A stretch of DNA of 36,117 nucleotides from a virus (lineage: Duplodnaviria; Heunggongvirae; Uroviricota; Caudoviricetes), in the IMG/VR virus record IMGVR_UViG_2563366924_000002, positions 1-36,117 of that record, one strand, 5' to 3'. This document shows, piece after piece, positions 1,788 to 34,827 of this stretch. A model generated the notes under the pieces. It had not been told where the DNA came from, ran no database searches, and saw only the letters and a list, made by a program, of their open reading frames with translations. The position numbers and the translations under genes were made by a program. Numbering within the stretch: position 1 is the stretch's first letter; every line of letters begins with the position of its first letter.

Positions 1788-2144
1788 TTAGTGAGGTAGT
1801 GATGGCATCATTTTTATTATTAACCCAACACCAGTTCCAACGGCTGCAAGAACTGAACCAATAATAGCCATGGCTTGGAGTCTCATTGCGCTGTGAAGTT
1901 CTGCTTTTGCATTAGCTATGTCTGTTTTAACAGATTCTACATTGGCAGATGTTGCATAGTTAGACTTAATTACAGCGATGTCGGTCGCCATGGTTGCGAC
2001 TTTATCTTCAAGAATTTTTATGCGCTGTAACATGTCACCACCTCCACCGTTACCACCACCATATGTCTCATCATTATGGTGGTTATGTGGAAAATTATCA
2101 ACTTTACTCCTGTCAAGAGGCACAGCGTACAGATGTCGTTTCAT
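1788..2144 (-). CDS. Small membrane protein (118 aa): His/Gly-rich N-terminus, coiled-coil-like middle, single C-terminal TM helix (XhlA-like architecture); second gene of the cI-linked cassette
   Basis: Hydrophobic stretch AMAIIGSVLAAVGTGVGLII near the C-terminus; GGGNGGGGD; start overlaps upstream stop by ATGA; AT-rich. Confidence 0.6.
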   Translation of the reverse strand: MKRHLYAVPLDRSKVDNFPHNHHNDETYGGGNGGGGDMLQRIKILEDKVATMATDIAVIKSNYATSANVESVKTDIANAKAELHSAMRLQAMAIIGSVLAAVGTGVGLIIKMMPSLPH

Positions 2145-2581
2145 TCCTTATCTCTGTTCGGGGTGGTTGAAATAAGAGCGCATTTTTTTTCATCAATAAC
2201 TTCGCTAAGATTACCATCAATGTCTTCAAAGATGCGATAAATTATGTCATATGTTCCTGTTTCTATAAGTTTGATGTTTTTAACGAAAAGATATGTGCCA
2301 ACCACAACATATTTTTCATTGACAGGAGAAAACATAAATGTTTGCAGTTGCTCTTGATTGCTAGAGATATCAGGTAAAACCGATTCTCCATTGAATACGA
2401 CATCAAGTTCGGTAGTGTATTTTTTTTCGTGCTCGAAGTACATTATTGCAGTTAGGTAAAATGAGCCGGAACAAGGGTATTCTTCCGACACTATTATAGG
2501 ATCTGGTGTCATAAAAGGAGTGATTGCCAGCCCGGGTTTTACCGCCGTTGTGTAGATTGTTATTATTTTTTCTTCTCTCAT
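2141..2581 (-). CDS. Hypothetical soluble protein (146 aa); first gene downstream of cI (rexA position)
   Basis: AAGGAAA ribosome-binding site; 69-bp gap after the cI stop; AT-rich; no motif recognised. Confidence 0.6.
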   Translation of the reverse strand: MREEKIITIYTTAVKPGLAITPFMTPDPIIVSEEYPCSGSFYLTAIMYFEHEKKYTTELDVVFNGESVLPDISSNQEQLQTFMFSPVNEKYVVVGTYLFVKNIKLIETGTYDIIYRIFEDIDGNLSEVIDEKKCALISTTPNRDKE

Positions 2582-2650: not shown

Positions 2651-3355
2651 TCACGAACTTTTCAGCCACTCCCTTGCCTCGATGTCATCCAGATGGCGAG
2701 ATTGCTTCAGAATACCAGCCACATACTCCACCTTTGCTACTTGATGATAAGGCAACGTTATTGGCCTGTGGTCTTGGTTGATGCTTGTAAATTGGTATTC
2801 TCCATCTCTGTCATAGCCAAGAACCTTAATCATGTTGTGTCCTTCAACGGTTCTGACAAACACCTCATCACCAGGGAATACTTTGGTGTTAGGCTCAATG
2901 AGTACATATTCTCCTGATTTTATTCTAGGCCACATGCTGTCTCCTTTCACACGAAGGCCAAAGGCATCTGGATCATCGCTATAAATTTTGAGCCACCCAT
3001 CGCGCTCTTCGGTCATCTCGATGGCACCATCAACACCAAGAATTGCCTCACCAACCACGCGCACTAACCCTTTTCTTACCTGACCGACAAAAGTTAAAGA
3101 ATCTGAGCATGATGCAATTGGTGTTACATCATGTACCAAATCAAGCCACCCATTAGGTAACCCAAGTGCGGCTTCAAATTTTCTTGCTAGTTTATCCCCT
3201 ATGTTTCGAGTGCTTTTTTCACCGGAGACTTGCGTGAGTTGAGAAGGGCTAACCCCAAGCTTATCGGCAAAGCTTGCATTAGTGTTACCCGCGATTTTTT
3301 TATGCTCATCTAGCAAAAACGCCAGATTCGATTTGCGAATATCTTTGTTTTCCAT
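2651..3355 (-). CDS. cI: CI-type prophage repressor (N-terminal HTH, C-terminal S24 LexA-like peptidase domain)
   Basis: HTH segment LGVSPSQLTQ; peptidase motif VKGDSMWPRIKSGEYVLIEP; divergent from the cro-like gene across an operator region. Confidence 0.9.
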   Translation of the reverse strand: MENKDIRKSNLAFLLDEHKKIAGNTNASFADKLGVSPSQLTQVSGEKSTRNIGDKLARKFEAALGLPNGWLDLVHDVTPIASCSDSLTFVGQVRKGLVRVVGEAILGVDGAIEMTEERDGWLKIYSDDPDAFGLRVKGDSMWPRIKSGEYVLIEPNTKVFPGDEVFVRTVEGHNMIKVLGYDRDGEYQFTSINQDHRPITLPYHQVAKVEYVAGILKQSRHLDDIEAREWLKSS

Positions 3356-22729: not shown

Positions 22730-23194
22730 ATGTCTGCACTTTATGAAAAATCGCAGCTGACGAAGATCCTTATTTCCTCCCTGCCAGCCACCAAAGAAAC
22801 GATGGATTCAGCAACCTTCCTCGATCTGAGTTGCACCATCAAAGAAATTCAGTTCACCGGTGGTCAGAAGCAGGATATCGACGTAACAACACTTTGCTCT
22901 ACCGAGCAGGAGAACATCAACGGCCTGTCTTCTCCGTCAGAAATCTCTCTGTCCGGCAACTTCTACAAGAATCCGGCGCAGGACGCCTTGCGTGAAGCGT
23001 ATGACAACGATACGACCTACGCGTTCCAGGTTATCTTCCCGTCCGGCAAGGGCTTTAAGTTCCTGGCTGAAATCCGCCAGCACACCTGGTCTTCCGGTAC
23101 CAACGGCGTAGTGGCGGCAACGTTCTCCCTGCGCCTGAAAGGTAAGCCTGAAAACATCGAGCTGGCTCCTGAGAGGTCTCATGAAGAATATTAA
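22730..23194 (+). CDS. Major tail (tube) protein
   Basis: 154 aa; precedes the tail assembly chaperone pair and tape measure. Confidence 0.7.
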   Translation: MSALYEKSQLTKILISSLPATKETMDSATFLDLSCTIKEIQFTGGQKQDIDVTTLCSTEQENINGLSSPSEISLSGNFYKNPAQDALREAYDNDTTYAFQVIFPSGKGFKFLAEIRQHTWSSGTNGVVAATFSLRLKGKPENIELAPERSHEEY

Positions 23195-23564
23195 AAATCT
23201 CGCCCTGGCTAAGATGTCGGGATTTCGTCATAAGACGGTCGCCGTTCCTGAGTGGGAAGGCGTCAAAGTGGTTCTCCGTGAGCCGTCAGGTGAAGCCTGG
23301 CTGCGCTGGCAGGAAGTGGTGAAAGCGGGTGCTGATGATGAAAATGTGTCAGTATCGGAAAAGGCACACCGTAATCTTTGCGCTGACGTGGTGCTCTTCA
23401 TTGACGTTCTGTGTGACACCGATAAGCAGCCGGTATTCAGCGTAGACGAAGAAGAGCAGGTGCGTGAAATCTACGGCCCCGTCCATTCACGCCTGCTCAA
23501 ACAGGCGCTTGACCTGATCAACAACGCGGACGAAGCGCGGGAAAAGTCTCAACCCCCGGCGTAA
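23181..23564 (+). CDS. Tail assembly chaperone (lambda gpG analogue)
   Basis: 127 aa acidic protein directly upstream of tape measure; -1 frame ORF overlaps its 3-prime end. Confidence 0.7.
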   Translation: MKNIKNLALAKMSGFRHKTVAVPEWEGVKVVLREPSGEAWLRWQEVVKAGADDENVSVSEKAHRNLCADVVLFIDVLCDTDKQPVFSVDEEEQVREIYGPVHSRLLKQALDLINNADEAREKSQPPA

Positions 23565-23572
23565 AGTTTCTG

Positions 23573-23851
23573 ATGTCGCTTGCGCTCCGTATGGGGCGCA
23601 CGCTCTCAGAGCTTCGACAGAATATGACGGCAAGCGAGCTTCTGATGTGGATTGAGTACGACAGGCAAAGTCCGGTTGGCGATATCCGTGGCGACATTCA
23701 GGCAGCCCAGCTCGTCTCTGCCATCTACGGCTCGCAGGGGGCAAAAGTACCGCTGGACGATGCGATCCTGCGCTGGGGTGGTGATGAGCAATCAGAACCG
23801 AAGGACCCGTTTGCAGGGCTTGAGGCTGCACTTACAGCTGCAACTCAGTGA
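23573..23851 (+). CDS. Tail assembly chaperone, frameshift-extension part (lambda gpT analogue)
   Basis: Open in the -1 frame relative to the G-like gene from upstream of that gene's stop; likely made as a G-T fusion. Confidence 0.6.
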   Translation: MSLALRMGRTLSELRQNMTASELLMWIEYDRQSPVGDIRGDIQAAQLVSAIYGSQGAKVPLDDAILRWGGDEQSEPKDPFAGLEAALTAATQ

Positions 23852-23904
23852 CAAATGAACTACAAAATAATAGGATTATTTTTTTTAATGATTTGGTGAA
23901 GGCA

Positions 23905-24198
23905 ATGAAAAAACTAGTCTTATTTGTATTATTTTTTGGTTTCAGTTGTGTTTCAAATGCAACTCAAACACTGGCTCCATTAGAACCAAATGAGTTGCAA
24001 AGCTATACGTCTACGATTTGCTCTGATCATGCAAATCCTGAATTGTGTAAAAAGGCTTTTTTTAAATTCATGGGCTATATAAAAACAAACGATGATTACT
24101 ACTATTTCTGTCAAAAGCAAAAAGAGGCAGGGATGACGATTAATAAAGATTCATGCAATAAATCGGAAGCTCTGAGAGAATTTTTAGACAAGCCATGA
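23905..24198 (+). CDS. Moron: small secreted Cys-containing protein (98-aa precursor with Sec signal peptide)
   Basis: Signal peptide MKKLVLFVLFFGFSCVSNA; strongly AT-rich; own terminator; inserted between the chaperone and tape measure genes. Confidence 0.6.
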   Translation: MKKLVLFVLFFGFSCVSNATQTLAPLEPNELQSYTSTICSDHANPELCKKAFFKFMGYIKTNDDYYYFCQKQKEAGMTINKDSCNKSEALREFLDKP

Positions 24199-24214
24199 GG
24201 TTTATATCACAACA

Positions 24215-24242
24215 AAAAGCCCGTTGATGGGCTTTTTTTTTC
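24215..24242 (+). terminator. Rho-independent terminator after the moron
   Basis: Hairpin agcccgttgatgggct followed by a run of nine T. Confidence 0.6.
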
Positions 24243-24257
24243 GCCTGGAGAAAATTG

Positions 24258-27200
24258 ATGGCAACATTACGTGAGTTAATAATCAAAATTTCCGCTAACT
24301 CGCAGTCATTCCAGTCGGAAATTTCCCGCGCCTCACGCATGGGGCAGGATTATTACCGAACCATGCAAAATGGCGGTCGGCAGGCTGCCGCTGCCGCCCG
24401 AGAGAGCGAAAGGGCGTTATCTGATCTGACCGCTGGGTTTGCATCGGCAGGAAGAGCCGCTGCTGCTGCTACGGCCGCTTTTGCGACTGGTAAGCTCGTG
24501 CAGATTGCTGATGAGTGGAATTCAGTAAACGCCCGTCTTAAGCAGGCATCATCTTCAGCTGATGATTTTGCTGCCTCTCAGCGCCAGTTAATGGAAATCA
24601 GCCAAAGAACTGGCACCGCGTTTTCAGACAACGCAAACCTTTTTTCACGCGCAGCTGCTTCAATGCGTGAGTTTGGGTATAGCTCTGACGAAGTTCTGAA
24701 AATTACCGAAGCTGTTTCTACCGGCCTTAAACTTTCGGGGGCTAATACTCAGGAAGCGAGTTCTGTTATCACTCAATTCAGCCAGGCTCTGGCGCAGGGC
24801 GTTCTTCGCGGTGAAGAATTCAACGCCGTTAACGAAGCAGGTGATCGTGTTATCCGCGCACTTGCCGCCGGAATGGGCGTGGCCCGCAAAGACCTGAAGA
24901 GCATGGCTGACCAGGGGCAACTTACGATTGATAAGGTTGTTCCTGCATTAATGAGCCAGTTGGGCTCATTACAGGGTGAGTTTGCCAGCATGCCGCAAAC
25001 AGTTTCCGGATCCCTGCAAAAAGTCACAAACTCGTTCATGGCATGGGTTGGAGGTGTCAACCAGGCTACAGGTGCTACCGATGCGCTATCTGGTGGCCTA
25101 TACGGAGTTGCCCAAACGCTTGATTCATTTACCTCTTCGGCAGTAAGTGGCGCACTAAGTGATGTTGCAGACAATATGTCCACGATCACAACAGTGGCGG
25201 GTGCACTTGTTGGCGTTGGGCTGGCAAGGTATCTCAGTGGAGTAGTAACAAGCGCCACGAGCGCAACCGGCGCGCTAATTTCTGCGGCTAAGTCAGAGGT
25301 TGCTCTTGCCGTTGCACAGGATAAGGCTGCACAGTCTGCCGTTGCCGCCTCAAGGGCGGAGGTTTATAGGGCTCAGCAAGCTGTACAGAGATCGCGTAGC
25401 GCAGATGTTCAGGCTGCTCAGCAAGAGAAAATTGCCGCAGCAGAAGCAAAGGTTACAGCAGCTCAAGCCAGGCTGACTACTGCTCTTGCAACTGGTACCG
25501 CTACGGAAAAAGTCAGGGCCAGAACAGCTCTTGAGCGTGCTCAGGCAAGCCTGGTTGCAGCCAAAAATGCTGATGCTCAGGCCGTTTCTGAAAGGCGCCT
25601 TGCTGCTGCTCAGGCTGCCTTAAGTCGTAACCTTGCAAACCGTGTTTCAGCTCAAAGCAATCTCAATAGCGTTACATCAGTAGGCTCACGCCTTATGGGT
25701 GGGGCACTCGGGCTTATTGGTGGCGTGCCCGGGTTGGTAATGCTTGGGGCCGGTGCCTGGTATGCGATGTACCAAAACCAGGAGCAGGCCCGTCGTTCTG
25801 CCCAGGAATACGCCAGTCAAATTGACGAAATTAGAGAAAAAACATCCCGAATGTCTTTGTCGGAAACAGACGACAATAGGGGGAAAACTGTTGGTGCCCT
25901 AGTTGAGCAAAATCGCCTGGTTGATGAGCAATCCAGAAAAGTTGGTGAGCTGAAAGCTCAAATAGACGATTTGAATACTTCTCGCGGCAAACCAGGTATT
26001 ACCAGCGAGAACGATGCAAATATACTGAGAGCGATAGCTATTGTTACGGATCAACTTGCTGTTGAAGAGGGAAAATTAAATGACATGCGAGATAAATCTC
26101 GCGGCATACAGCAGGCTCTGGAAGAAATTGAACGGCGTCGTAATGATTTAATTCGCGAACAAGCCTGGCGACAAAATGCGGTATATCAGTCGATGATCAT
26201 GATGAATGGTCAACATACTGAATTTAACCGCCTGTTAGGGCTGGGCAATCAACTCCTTATGGTTCGCCAGGGGCTTGCTAATGTTCCGCTCAGACTTCCT
26301 CAGGCAGACCTCGACAAAAAGCAAACTGATGCTCTCGAAAAGAGTCGCCGGGATCTTGAGTTGTCACGCCTGAAGGGTGAGGCCAAAGAGCGCCTGCGTC
26401 TGAGTTATGCAGCCGATGACCTGGGGTTAACCAGTGATCCGCAATTCCAGACAGGCCGTCAGGAGTTGATTAATAACGGTCTTGCTGAATGGCGGAATAA
26501 TGAGGCCAACAAACCTAAGGCGAAGGGTGGTAAAACCGAAGGCGAGAAAACCGAGGATGTGTATAAGCGCCTTATCAAGCAGCAAAAAGAGCAGATTGCC
26601 CTGCAAGGCCAGAATACTGAACTGGCGAAGGTTAAATACCAGGTCAGCCAGGGCGAACTTGCTTCTCTGACAGAAGCCCAGAAAAAGACGGTATTGCAGA
26701 ATGCTGCGCTGATTGACCAGGTTAAATTACGTGAGCAACTGCGAAATTACGAAGCCAACCTTGCCGACAGTAACGCCAGCGCCCGCGCAGCCAATGAAGC
26801 GCAACTGCTGGGATACGGGCAGGGCTCCCGGTTCCGTGAAAGACTTCAGGAGCAGTTCAATCTGCGTAAGGAGTTTGAGCAGAAGAATACCGATCTTCTC
26901 CGCCAGCGTCAGGCTGGTGAAATCGACGAGACGTTCTATCAGCAGGGGCGGGCACTTAATAAGCGCTACCTCGAAGAGCGCCTGCGCGACCAGGAGGGAT
27001 ATTACGCAGCTTCTGATGCGCAGCGTGACGACTGGATGACGGGCTTGTCTGAAGGCTATGCAAACTGGGTGGATGAGGCGACGGATTATTCCTCTATGGC
27101 GGCAGATGGCATGAAGCAGGCTATGGGCGGGGCGGTTACCACCATTACTGACATGCTTAACGGTAACGTCGACAGCTGGAAAGACTGGGGCGTTAGTGTA

Positions 27201-27722
27201 CTGAAGATCATCCAGAATGTTCTGGTCAATATGGCTGTTGCCAACGGCGTCAGTTCGATTGGTTCTCTCTTCAGTTTCGGCGCATCTTCGGCAGCGACCG
27301 CCAGTAGCGGTACCGCTATTCAGAATGCTGGTGCTAACTTCACCTTTAATGCCAAAGGTAATGTTTACGACTCCCCATCCCTGAGCGCATACAGCAATGG
27401 CGTTTTTCAGACGCCTCAGCTGTTTGCTTTTGCCAAAGGTGCGGGGATTTTCGGCGAGGCAGGTCCTGAAGCCATTATGCCACTCACGCGGGCACCTAAT
27501 GGTGATCTTGCTGTTCGCGCAGTAGGGATGCCGCAGGTCTCTGGCGGCGTGCCTTCAGTTAACTTCGGCGATATCAATATTCAGGGCGGATCTCCACAGG
27601 CGTCCAGTCATGGTACTGCCGGAGCAGCAGGCTGGCAGCTTAAGGATGCCATCACTGGCGTCATTAACGAACAGGCCAGCATGCCTGGATCGCCTCTGTG
27701 GCGTTTAATCAAGGGGGTTTAA
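24258..27722 (+). CDS. Tail tape measure protein
   Basis: About 1150 aa, Ala/Gln-rich, coiled-coil; GGAG ribosome-binding site; precedes M-L-K-I. Confidence 0.9.
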   Translation: MATLRELIIKISANSQSFQSEISRASRMGQDYYRTMQNGGRQAAAAARESERALSDLTAGFASAGRAAAAATAAFATGKLVQIADEWNSVNARLKQASSSADDFAASQRQLMEISQRTGTAFSDNANLFSRAAASMREFGYSSDEVLKITEAVSTGLKLSGANTQEASSVITQFSQALAQGVLRGEEFNAVNEAGDRVIRALAAGMGVARKDLKSMADQGQLTIDKVVPALMSQLGSLQGEFASMPQTVSGSLQKVTNSFMAWVGGVNQATGATDALSGGLYGVAQTLDSFTSSAVSGALSDVADNMSTITTVAGALVGVGLARYLSGVVTSATSATGALISAAKSEVALAVAQDKAAQSAVAASRAEVYRAQQAVQRSRSADVQAAQQEKIAAAEAKVTAAQARLTTALATGTATEKVRARTALERAQASLVAAKNADAQAVSERRLAAAQAALSRNLANRVSAQSNLNSVTSVGSRLMGGALGLIGGVPGLVMLGAGAWYAMYQNQEQARRSAQEYASQIDEIREKTSRMSLSETDDNRGKTVGALVEQNRLVDEQSRKVGELKAQIDDLNTSRGKPGITSENDANILRAIAIVTDQLAVEEGKLNDMRDKSRGIQQALEEIERRRNDLIREQAWRQNAVYQSMIMMNGQHTEFNRLLGLGNQLLMVRQGLANVPLRLPQADLDKKQTDALEKSRRDLELSRLKGEAKERLRLSYAADDLGLTSDPQFQTGRQELINNGLAEWRNNEANKPKAKGGKTEGEKTEDVYKRLIKQQKEQIALQGQNTELAKVKYQVSQGELASLTEAQKKTVLQNAALIDQVKLREQLRNYEANLADSNASARAANEAQLLGYGQGSRFRERLQEQFNLRKEFEQKNTDLLRQRQAGEIDETFYQQGRALNKRYLEERLRDQEGYYAASDAQRDDWMTGLSEGYANWVDEATDYSSMAADGMKQAMGGAVTTITDMLNGNVDSWKDWGVSVLKIIQNVLVNMAVANGVSSIGSLFSFGASSAATASSGTAIQNAGANFTFNAKGNVYDSPSLSAYSNGVFQTPQLFAFAKGAGIFGEAGPEAIMPLTRAPNGDLAVRAVGMPQVSGGVPSVNFGDINIQGGSPQASSHGTAGAAGWQLKDAITGVINEQASMPGSPLWRLIKGV

Positions 27723-34058: not shown

Positions 34059-34317
34059 ACAACCTTCAGACCAACCAACACGGTTCATAGCTGGTGAGCA
34101 ATCAGGTTTAACTTTTTTACCTTTCATCCACTCAGCTTTAGCTTTACCAGCGGTAGTGCCTTCATAGATGGCAGTCTGGTGCTCAATATTAATGCCCACC
34201 TAGTGATGAACCACCGGCTCCACCATTACCTGGGCCACCAGTACCACTGGAATGACCAGTTGCATAAGCAAAAGTAGCAGTCATAGAAAGAATAATGGCG
34301 CAGATTAAAGTCTTCAT
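34053..34317 (-). pseudogene. Small secreted Gly-rich protein gene, apparently disrupted by a frameshift (two consecutive frames)
   Basis: Minus-strand AGGAG ribosome-binding site and ATG at 34317; signal peptide MKTLICAIILSMTATFAYA; stop at 34189; adjacent frame continues open to 34053. Confidence 0.35.
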
Positions 34318-34397
34318 TTCGAACTCCTTTATGTTTGTGTGTAACAACTATATAGGGATATAATTTAAGATGTAAACCCCGATCTTATATAAGGGCA

Positions 34398-34505
34398 CAA
34401 CTCATGGCAATTCGTTTACAAGGTATTTTAGTTGATGGATTGAATAAACCAATCGTCAACGCAAACGTCTTCTTACTTGCACGAAGCCATTCATTTTTGA
34501 TGGGA
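34398..34505 (+). pseudogene. Remnant of a side tail fibre (Stf-like) N-terminus
   Basis: MAIRLQGILVDGLNKPIVNANVFLLARS parallels the Stf N-terminus MAVKISGVLKDGTGKPVQNCTIQLKAR as recalled; frame collapses after 35 codons. Confidence 0.4.
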
Positions 34506-34827
34506 CAATAAATATCGCCAATGCGAACCTGAATATTGGTGATGAATTTTGCCAGATTGTTTATACCGGGGCTAACTGTCGACACGTTGGTGGTTACGGA
34601 AATATTAGGTATAAAGGAATTGTAATGACAGGTGGGAATGTCATAGCGGAAAGGAATAAAGTAGTCGGCAATTATTATTTGGGTGGGTGGTCAATGGCAT
34701 TTGATACAACTATAGCTATGCCAACACTGGCGTTGCCCAACATGTATTAAAAACCAATTCAGAAATTATTTCTGGTGATGGTTATATACCTCTCCGGGAT
34801 TCATGTTGTCTAAATTTAGGAGTTGTT

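Follow-up and report, generated by a model that had tools for sequence, protein, structure and literature searches.

The junction between the tail genes G-T and the tape measure gene

The window, that is, the whole 36,117-nucleotide stretch of DNA that was analyzed (IMG/VR record IMGVR_UViG_2563366924_000002), is the genome of an HK97-like (Hendrixvirinae-type) temperate siphovirus, with genes for a cI-like repressor, replication, lysis, terminase, portal, protease, capsid and tail. Its tail module is 93-98% identical to that of HK97 at the protein level; the C-terminus of its J protein is 69% identical to the C-terminus of HK97 J. Between the T and tape measure genes lies a 394-bp cassette (23852-24245, in window coordinates) with a single ORF, the product of which is referred to here as the 4-Cys protein. 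The features of the junction are the following:

23181-23564, plus strand: tail assembly chaperone G, the homologue of HK97 gp13 (PF06222 Phage_TAC_1, E 2.9e-59; 93% identity to HK97 gp13)
23573-23851, plus strand: T part of the G-T frameshift product, the homologue of HK97 gp14 (PF06223 Phage_tail_T, E 3.3e-20)
23848-23853, plus strand: GTGACA, putative -35 hexamer that overlaps the stop codon of T (consensus promoter scan, 9/12 match with 17-nt spacing)
23871-23876, plus strand: putative -10 hexamer TAGGAT (consensus promoter scan)
23895-23902, plus strand: Shine-Dalgarno-like GGTGAAGG, 2-5 nt before the ATG (read from the sequence)
23905-24198, plus strand: ORF of 97 aa, from ATG at 23905 to TGA at 24196-24198 (read from the sequence)
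23905-23961, plus strand: predicted signal peptide, residues 1-19 (MKKLVLFVLFFGFSCVSNA; n/h/c layout by eye, conserved in the family)
23962-24198, plus strand: predicted mature domain of 78 aa plus stop codon (9.0 kDa, pI 5.7, hydrophilic)
24214-24241, plus strand: putative intrinsic terminator with 9-bp stem, 6-nt loop and T run (by folding; hairpin kept in the family)
24258-27722, plus strand: tail tape measure protein (PF20155, PF06120, PF09718; phrog_339)

T is read in the -1 frame relative to G and stops at the TGA at 23849-23851 (the annotation of HK97 gp14 specifies translation by -1 frameshift); the tape measure gene is preceded by the ribosome-binding site GGAG at 24247-24250. When the window is aligned to HK97, homology ends at the T stop codon (23851) and restarts at the tape measure ribosome-binding site (~24246), and around G/T-tape measure only the cassette differs. 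The points at which homology breaks off and resumes are the boundaries that the original prediction, which had been made from the letters of this DNA, had assigned to an AT-rich insert. Its further claim, that the insert is very poor in GC relative to its neighbors, is matched by the numbers: GC is 0.327 in the cassette (GC3 0.30), 0.553 in G+T and 0.523 in the tape measure gene. The cassette has the lowest GC of all 394-nt stretches of the window, of which only 0.17% are at or below 0.34. No RNA families were found by Rfam search of the segment 23600-24500.

The attributes by which a moron is recognized under the Juhala/Hendrix definition, for which PMC3594210 gives a summary, can be read off this junction: the cassette is extra DNA between genes that are adjacent or differently occupied in relatives, its base composition is unlike that of its neighbors and, in silico, it has a promoter and a terminator of its own. 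By the evidence of its sequence, the cassette is a moron (promoter, one ORF and terminator) in the HK97 gene 15 slot, and it is an insert of foreign composition with a selected gene. Composition, promoter, terminator and the break in homology to HK97 all fit the moron-type insert that had been proposed.

Promoter prediction, one of the checks that the original prediction had suggested, yields a putative σ70-type promoter, GTGACA-17 nt-TAGGAT. The same pair of hexamers is present in 18 of 24 distinct family upstream sequences, where it is conserved over 11 different spacers that are always 17 nt long; between the window and the Klebsiella types the spacer is ~24% identical. In L034 and in L049, a distant member from Salmonella, TAGGAT is likewise found about as far from the start codon; the -10 element of a Citrobacter variant is TATTAT. 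At least four cassette classes of the slot have a common promoter design, with the -35 element built from the T stop codon: the arrangement GTGAC[A/T]-17-TA..AT is also found in three classes other than that of the 4-Cys protein.

At the downstream end, AAAAAGCCC-GTTGAT-GGGCTTTTT followed by TTTT forms the putative terminator (fold z = -1.75, in a 55-nt context). A consensus terminator scan missed this hairpin, in our reading because an A/T extension of the stem probably uses up the T tail. The hairpin and T run are kept in all family loci, right before the tape measure ribosome-binding site, and the stem sequences differ among relatives (GCCCGTTGATGGGC, GCCTGCTTAGCAGG, ACCTGCTTCGGCAGGT, CCTCGCTCCGGCGGGG and others); in HK97 a "putative terminator" is annotated at the equivalent place. 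Maintenance of the fold with different stems sustains the earlier claim that the insert has its own terminator. Together, the conserved promoter-like and terminator elements support the existence of an independent transcription unit of the moron type.

The precursor protein and its mature domain

The ORF had previously been put at 98 aa: the ORF itself is borne out, and its length is 97 aa. A 116-aa version that starts at GTG 23848 (present in the ORF list and in cluster P0001, and chosen by some gene callers) is an artefact. It is rejected because the upstream extension is frame-shifted by indels or absent in close variants, and the MKK start is conserved. In close variants GGTGAAG or GGTAA is also kept at the Shine-Dalgarno position.

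The leader, read by eye, has the layout MKK/LVLFVLFFGFSCV/SNA, in which a basic n-region is followed by a hydrophobic core of 13 residues and by S-N-A at -3/-1: these are the characteristics of a Sec-exported protein that is cleaved by signal peptidase I, with cleavage predicted to occur after A19. Equivalent n/h/c regions are present in 12/12 aligned family members, the sequence of the leader drifting among them, and the Sec signal peptide that had been called at first sight is upheld by this by-eye comparison. In the structure model residues 1-21, with pLDDT <50, are disordered.

The leader also contains a cysteine (C15, in FGFSC) within its hydrophobic segment, and three other alleles of the slot are lipoproteins; the protein could, accordingly, be imagined as lipidated at C15 and anchored to a membrane rather than soluble in the periplasm. 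However, G-F-S-C misfits the lipobox [LVI][ASTVI][GAS]C, C15 is not invariant in the family (P0004 lacks it, as do all members that are distant or of the Klebsiella type), and it is the signal peptidase I-type c-region that is conserved. With C15 unconserved and lying outside any lipobox, the lipoprotein alternative is therefore very improbable.

The cysteines of the mature part are another matter: C39, C48, C69 and C84, the four that the original prediction had counted, are invariant across the family, down to 28% identity, and would fit two periplasmic disulfides. In an AlphaFold2 model built on a 7-sequence alignment, pLDDT exceeds 90 over most of the mature part, and three helices are formed by residues 28-39, 45-74 and 81-95. 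The mature product, as predicted in silico, is soluble, with three helices and the four invariant cysteines in its 78 aa.

The search for homologous sequences and structures, which had also been proposed as a check, placed the protein in no known family of Pfam, NCBIfam, PADLOC, PDB or BFVD. Scans against Pfam, PHROGs, NCBIfam and PADLOC returned noise only (RhoGEF, E 0.06; phrog_21025, E 0.05; PME_inhib, E 0.07), none of the families of the PADLOC-DB v2 defense models matched at E<=0.1, no relative of the 4-Cys family was found in PDB or BFVD by sequence or by structure, and no similarity to tail proteins was found in Pfam or PHROGs.

A small ORF without a database family, in an AT-rich spacer, invites the suspicion that it is spurious, or that it is the decayed fragment of a structural gene; the latter is a finding that the original prediction had named as fatal to itself. 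Between family members, however, dN/dS is 0.07-0.33 (pairwise, over the whole ORF; synonymous sites are saturated between subfamilies), and therefore this is a real gene under purifying selection rather than a decayed fragment: at the level of sequence, the selection analysis disposes of decay. The invariance of four cysteines over such divergence, the confident structure model, the conservation of ribosome-binding site and start codon, and the failure of the Pfam and PHROGs searches to find any similarity to tail proteins all speak against the same suspicion, the probability of which is next to negligible.

The HK97 gene 15 slot and its alleles

In the annotation of HK97, gene 15 ("moron product") and a terminator lie between gene 14 (G-T) and the tape measure gene. 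It is for this gene 15 element that the word moron is reported to have been coined (PMC3594210). As described in the same source, the prophage expresses gp15, which takes its place in the inner membrane and stops genome injection by HK97 and HK75; the block is lifted when tail regions are swapped, and the mechanism is given there as unknown as of 2012 (PMC3594210). The original prediction had taken the location of the insert to be unusual and had seen in it the interruption of a universal adjacency between chaperone and tape measure genes. The location is, instead, the slot of the founding moron, and the premise of universal adjacency is wrong for this phage group because HK97 carries gene 15 in the same slot. 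On sequence grounds, the earlier reading was right in kind (a moron, with a secreted product and independent expression) and wrong on the rarity of the site.

The presence or absence of the insert in relatives, to which the original prediction had also directed attention, was surveyed in 80 IMG/VR loci with a gpT >=98% identical to that of the window. No empty slot was found among these loci (80/80 are occupied). The slot holds at least six alternative cassettes, distributed as follows:

gp15 (YebO-like, PF13974): 10 loci
4-Cys family: 12 loci
zinc ribbon protein of 111 aa (PF13248) that also has two predicted membrane helices: 25 loci
113-aa lipoprotein: 14 loci
121-aa lipoprotein: 12 loci
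Cor, the exclusion lipoprotein that inactivates FhuA (NF047972, E 1.4e-39): 6 loci
Cor interrupted by an insertion sequence: 1 locus

The cassettes are all AT-rich (GC 0.32-0.44) and have similar right-hand boundaries, each ending in a hairpin/T run directly before the tape measure ribosome-binding site. Their cargo, in the 80 loci of the survey, is always a small envelope-targeted protein (membrane, lipid-anchored or secreted). A further allele of the slot, in reverse orientation, occurs in one E. coli genome. The 4-Cys protein is still uncharacterized, as had been stated at the outset, but the range of its likely functions has been narrowed: two of the alleles, gp15 and Cor, are exclusion proteins and all of them are envelope-targeted.

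The 4-Cys family is small. A word-indexed search of 5.8 billion proteins retrieves 6 close clusters, and 23 with a profile; an exhaustive profile search of 1.84 billion representatives retrieves 10 proteins only. The named sources are Citrobacter, Leclercia, Klebsiella, Salmonella and Pantoea, and three deposited phages have a copy: "Aeromonas" phage AsXd-1, Escherichia phage SaltyDalty (PP925825; 99% identical) and Klebsiella phage ST13-OXA48phi12.2. No family copies were found on plasmids, no member was found in a one-genome-per-species collection, and a search of 5,426 complete E. coli genomes, with the sensitivity of megablast or blastn, found none either. This last absence says little, because only 11 of the 5,426 genomes carry the G/T module. 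Two IMG/VR matches, L047 and L048 (= L179/L180), with 26-31% identity over 50 residues, were rejected as chance; the contigs on which they lie, adjoining two ~470-480-aa ORFs that are capsid-like by eye, appear giant-virus-like.

The place of the gene is nearly constant. In 41/41 close IMG/VR loci it follows T by ~55 nt and precedes the tape measure gene by ~60 nt, while the identity of the flanking G, T and tape measure N-terminus ranges, independently of one another, from 55% to 100%. The Klebsiella subfamily (51% identical) and the Citrobacter loci have it at the same place upstream of the tape measure gene; one Klebsiella-type locus has a 1.6-kb upstream insertion with a duplicated T 3' end, so that the cassette keeps its left boundary there as well. 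The distant members inspected, which are 28-39% identical, come from Salmonella, Citrobacter koseri, Pantoea and metagenomes: 7/7 lie upstream of a tape measure gene, 6/7 of them directly, with a gap of ~60 nt. The tail modules of these distant members have a different chaperone (DUF6246), and between chaperone and tape measure they have other accessory genes (KilA-N, Bro-N, DUF2335, YdcA), the 4-Cys gene being the last of these before the tape measure gene in all distant loci except Pantoea L050, in which a 144-aa ORF intervenes.

Cargo allele and tape measure clusters are associated, with an adjusted mutual information of 0.25-0.48 over most of the first two-thirds of the tape measure (near zero in two invariant segments) and of 0.11-0.17 in the last third. 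An association that falls off in this manner is what physical linkage alone would predict, and recombinational linkage, rather than a coupling of functions, could account for the strict adjacency to the tape measure gene.

Location inside the late operon, in the same orientation as its genes, adjacency to the tape measure gene in every context (apart from the intervening ORF of L050) and presence in the plaque-forming phages SaltyDalty and AsXd-1 would also suit an accessory protein of the lytic cycle, made mainly by read-through of the late operon and acting in the periplasm, for example by masking receptors on debris or by modulating lysis. The Llp protein of phage T5 is of this kind: it masks receptors so that progeny are not wasted on cell debris. 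A lytic role is nevertheless quite unlikely for the 4-Cys protein. A promoter and a terminator that are both conserved suggest that the gene has a transcript of its own. Near-identical tail modules, moreover, do without the gene and have other alleles at its place, so that it is dispensable. Receptor masking is itself a form of exclusion, so that the two readings overlap. The prophage expression of HK97 gp15 from the same slot (PMC3594210) also counts against a mainly lytic function.

A candidate superinfection-exclusion protein and its known counterparts

The 4-Cys cassette is an uncharacterized cargo of the HK97 gene 15 slot, and by analogy the cargo is probably an exclusion protein. The full reading, that the 4-Cys protein is a prophage-expressed periplasmic superinfection-exclusion protein, is assigned a probability of roughly 0.5; we infer the exclusion function only from position and from allelism with gp15 and Cor. 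The events can be pictured as follows. In the lysogen, the cassette would be transcribed from its own σ70 promoter (GTGACA/TAGGAT) and transcripts would end at the hairpin (24214-24241); during lytic growth, antiterminated late transcripts would read through that hairpin into the tape measure gene. The precursor would be exported by Sec and cleaved after A19, and its four remaining cysteines would form two DsbA-dependent disulfides in the periplasm. In the periplasm of the lysogen, the protein would block the entry of incoming siphophages (superinfection exclusion), either by binding the ejected tape measure/tail-tip conduit or by masking an envelope co-factor that the conduit needs (a receptor, a periplasmic chaperone or an inner-membrane transporter).

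The argument for exclusion by analogy is that two alleles of the slot, gp15 and Cor, are known exclusion proteins. Against it stand the searches, which found no similarity in sequence or fold to known exclusion proteins, and the consideration that cargo of unrelated function could occupy a moron slot: of the six allele classes, four are uncharacterized. These objections, taken with the moron architecture and the predicted export of the product, would be accommodated by a lysogenic-conversion factor that has nothing to do with exclusion and, periplasmic or secreted, serves the host in some other way: for example, an orphan immunity protein (for a periplasm-acting bacteriocin or type VI effector), an inhibitor of an envelope enzyme of the host or of foreign origin, or a factor for stress or virulence. 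Among immunity and inhibitor proteins, small periplasmic proteins with disulfide bonds are typical. The slot allele Cor is, furthermore, reported to protect against colicin M as well (PMC3594210). A conversion factor of this kind deserves serious consideration as a minority reading, if an unlikely one: the copies that were found all lie in phage tail modules, just upstream of the tape measure gene, the searches turned up no chromosomal, plasmid or defense-island copies and no similarity to known immunity or inhibitor families, and both characterized alleles of the slot act on phage entry.

A wider proposal can also be put forward, tentatively. The G-T/tape measure junction would be a dedicated, hot-swappable superinfection-exclusion locus, as would the position upstream of the tape measure gene in other enterobacterial siphoviruses. 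As a soluble protein of the periplasm that blocks siphophage genome injection, the 4-Cys protein would be the first in Gram-negative bacteria, acting by direct binding of the ejected tape measure conduit: a "Spackle for siphoviruses". To our knowledge, none of the proteins known to block siphophage entry in Gram-negative hosts is soluble and periplasmic. The characterized alleles of the slot, gp15 in the inner membrane and the lipoprotein Cor, are both described as membrane-associated (PMC3594210).

The transit of siphophage DNA across the periplasm, and the block that prophages impose on this step, are still poorly understood. A small, soluble and confidently modeled protein should be easier to handle biochemically than the membrane protein gp15, and the survey of the slot supplies, in near-isogenic tail backgrounds, a set of at least six proteins that are candidates for exclusion. 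It also suggests a rule for annotation: a small ORF for an envelope protein immediately upstream of a siphovirus tape measure gene is a candidate entry blocker. Should the function of the 4-Cys protein prove to be other than exclusion, the gene would be one more uncharacterized moron.

Outside the slot, two proteins invite comparison. Spackle (gp61.3) of phage T4, the 97-aa precursor of which yields a compact, α-helical, disulfide-bonded periplasmic protein of 75 aa, blocks superinfection by binding a component of the tail tip, the gp5 lysozyme (PMC7677548). The 4-Cys protein is alike in format (97-aa precursor; helical mature protein of 78 vs 75 aa), but Spackle is the product of an early gene of a lytic myovirus, whereas the 4-Cys gene is a prophage moron. 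No PDB chain, Spackle (PDB 6X6O) included, matches the family profile at E<=1, and Pfam detects no lysozyme domain in the tape measure protein of the window. Ltp of Streptococcus phage TP-J34 is reported to be an extracytoplasmic, prophage-encoded exclusion protein that prevents the injection of DNA and targets the tape measure protein (as cited in PMC10883804). Ltp is, in contrast, a lipoprotein of a Gram-positive host, and the 4-Cys protein shows no match to it in sequence or fold. Spackle and Ltp being unrelated to the 4-Cys protein in these respects, the comparisons are therefore of the "works-like" kind only.

Inside the slot, the likeness is one of architecture. The HK97 gene 15 cassette, between gene 14 (G-T) and the tape measure gene, is AT-rich (GC 0.37) and consists, as here, of one small ORF for an envelope protein and a terminator before the tape measure ribosome-binding site. 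The two products differ: gp15 has 62 aa and no cysteine and is reported to insert into the inner membrane (PMC3594210), whereas the 4-Cys protein has a predicted cleavable signal peptide and a soluble disulfide-type domain. gp15 matches PF13974 YebO (E 1.2e-8), whereas the 4-Cys protein has no Pfam match above noise; neither the profile match nor the uncleaved hydrophobic N-terminus of the YebO family is found in the 4-Cys protein, in which the hydrophobic segment is followed by the S-N-A cleavage motif. Cor (of HK022, phi80 and N15; NF047972) is described as a prophage-encoded entry blocker that inactivates FhuA (PMC3594210). It is a lipoprotein with the lipobox LSGC, whereas the 4-Cys protein has neither a lipobox nor a match to NF047972; it is, like the 4-Cys protein, small, exported and cysteine-containing, and it occupies the same slot in 6-7 of the 80 relatives. 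On the exclusion reading, the 4-Cys protein would be the soluble equivalent, in function, of gp15, which is anchored in the membrane, and of the lipoprotein Cor, with both of which it alternates as an allele of the slot.

Alternative occupants and boundaries of the G-T/tape-measure slot

The junction between the G-T tail chaperone genes and the tape-measure gene, which in the window holds the cassette of the 4-Cys protein, accommodates other cargo in related genomes. The known superinfection-exclusion lipoprotein Cor (NF047972, E 1.4e-39) is the occupant in 6/80 relatives whose gpT is at least 98% identical to that of the window (for example, loci L054 and L092). In another locus, L086, Cor is itself interrupted by an insertion encoding, on the opposite strand, a 224-aa ORF that looks like a candidate transposase. 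A further slot allele is found in E. coli ECONIH5 (NZ_CP026202; locus L260, 2073-2492): here the gene located between gpT and the tape measure runs in the opposite direction and encodes a 139-aa hypothetical protein.

In a Klebsiella-type IMG/VR contig (L040), the 4-Cys cassette is preceded by inserted DNA:

L040 1375-2990: insertion of ~1.6 kb between gpT and the 4-Cys gene

The insertion codes for a 279-aa protein, which by eye looks KilA-N-like, and two small ORFs. A second copy of the C-terminal coding end of T (…GDPFAGLEAALLAASQ) lies directly 5' of the 4-Cys cassette; the left boundary of the cassette is thus kept.

Tail genes preceding the slot

Two features of the window's tail genes, at the two ends of G, bear separate comment:

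22730-23194: major tail (tube) protein gene, 154 aa, overlapping the start of G
23538-23546: CGGGAAAAG, close to the end of G, at a point where the T frame (-1) is open

The major tail protein of HK97 has 234 aa, whereas that of the window has only 154, and the equivalent short gene in two E. coli genomes is labeled by PGAP as a pseudogene, 'missing C-terminus'. Because the deposited phages SaltyDalty and AsXd-1 also have this short form, the 154-aa protein is probably functional. The AsXd-1 record (MH178096, 'Aeromonas phage AsXd-1'; locus L001) is attributed to Aeromonas salmonicida, and 52/52 of its features are annotated 'hypothetical protein'. Its tail region is 92-100% identical to that of enterobacterial HK97-like phages; the attribution to an A. 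salmonicida host looks doubtful.

The element CGGGAAAAG is presumably the G-T slippery site. Its zero-frame codons, in the G frame as read here, are CGG GAA AAG, and differ from the lambda-type register, G GGA AAG.

Other low-GC islands of the window

Two further islands of low GC content lie outside the slot:

34189-34347 (-): small ORF, in an AT-rich island (~34241-34725) downstream of the tail gene J
1431-2640: island of GC 0.35, with two overlapping ORFs, 1788-2144 (-) and 2141-2581 (-)

The product of the first, in which a Gly-rich tail (TGHSSGTGGPGNGGAGGSSLGGH) comes after MKTLICAIILSMTATFAYA, looks like a candidate secreted peptide; the region downstream of J is a frequent moron site in lambdoid phages. 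Of the two ORF products of the second island, one (118 aa) has a hydrophobic segment at its C-terminus as well as a Gly-rich stretch; the other is 146 aa long. Both ORFs adjoin the cI-like repressor gene (2651-3355), just downstream of it, which is the position of prophage-expressed genes of the rexAB/sieB type in other lambdoid phages.
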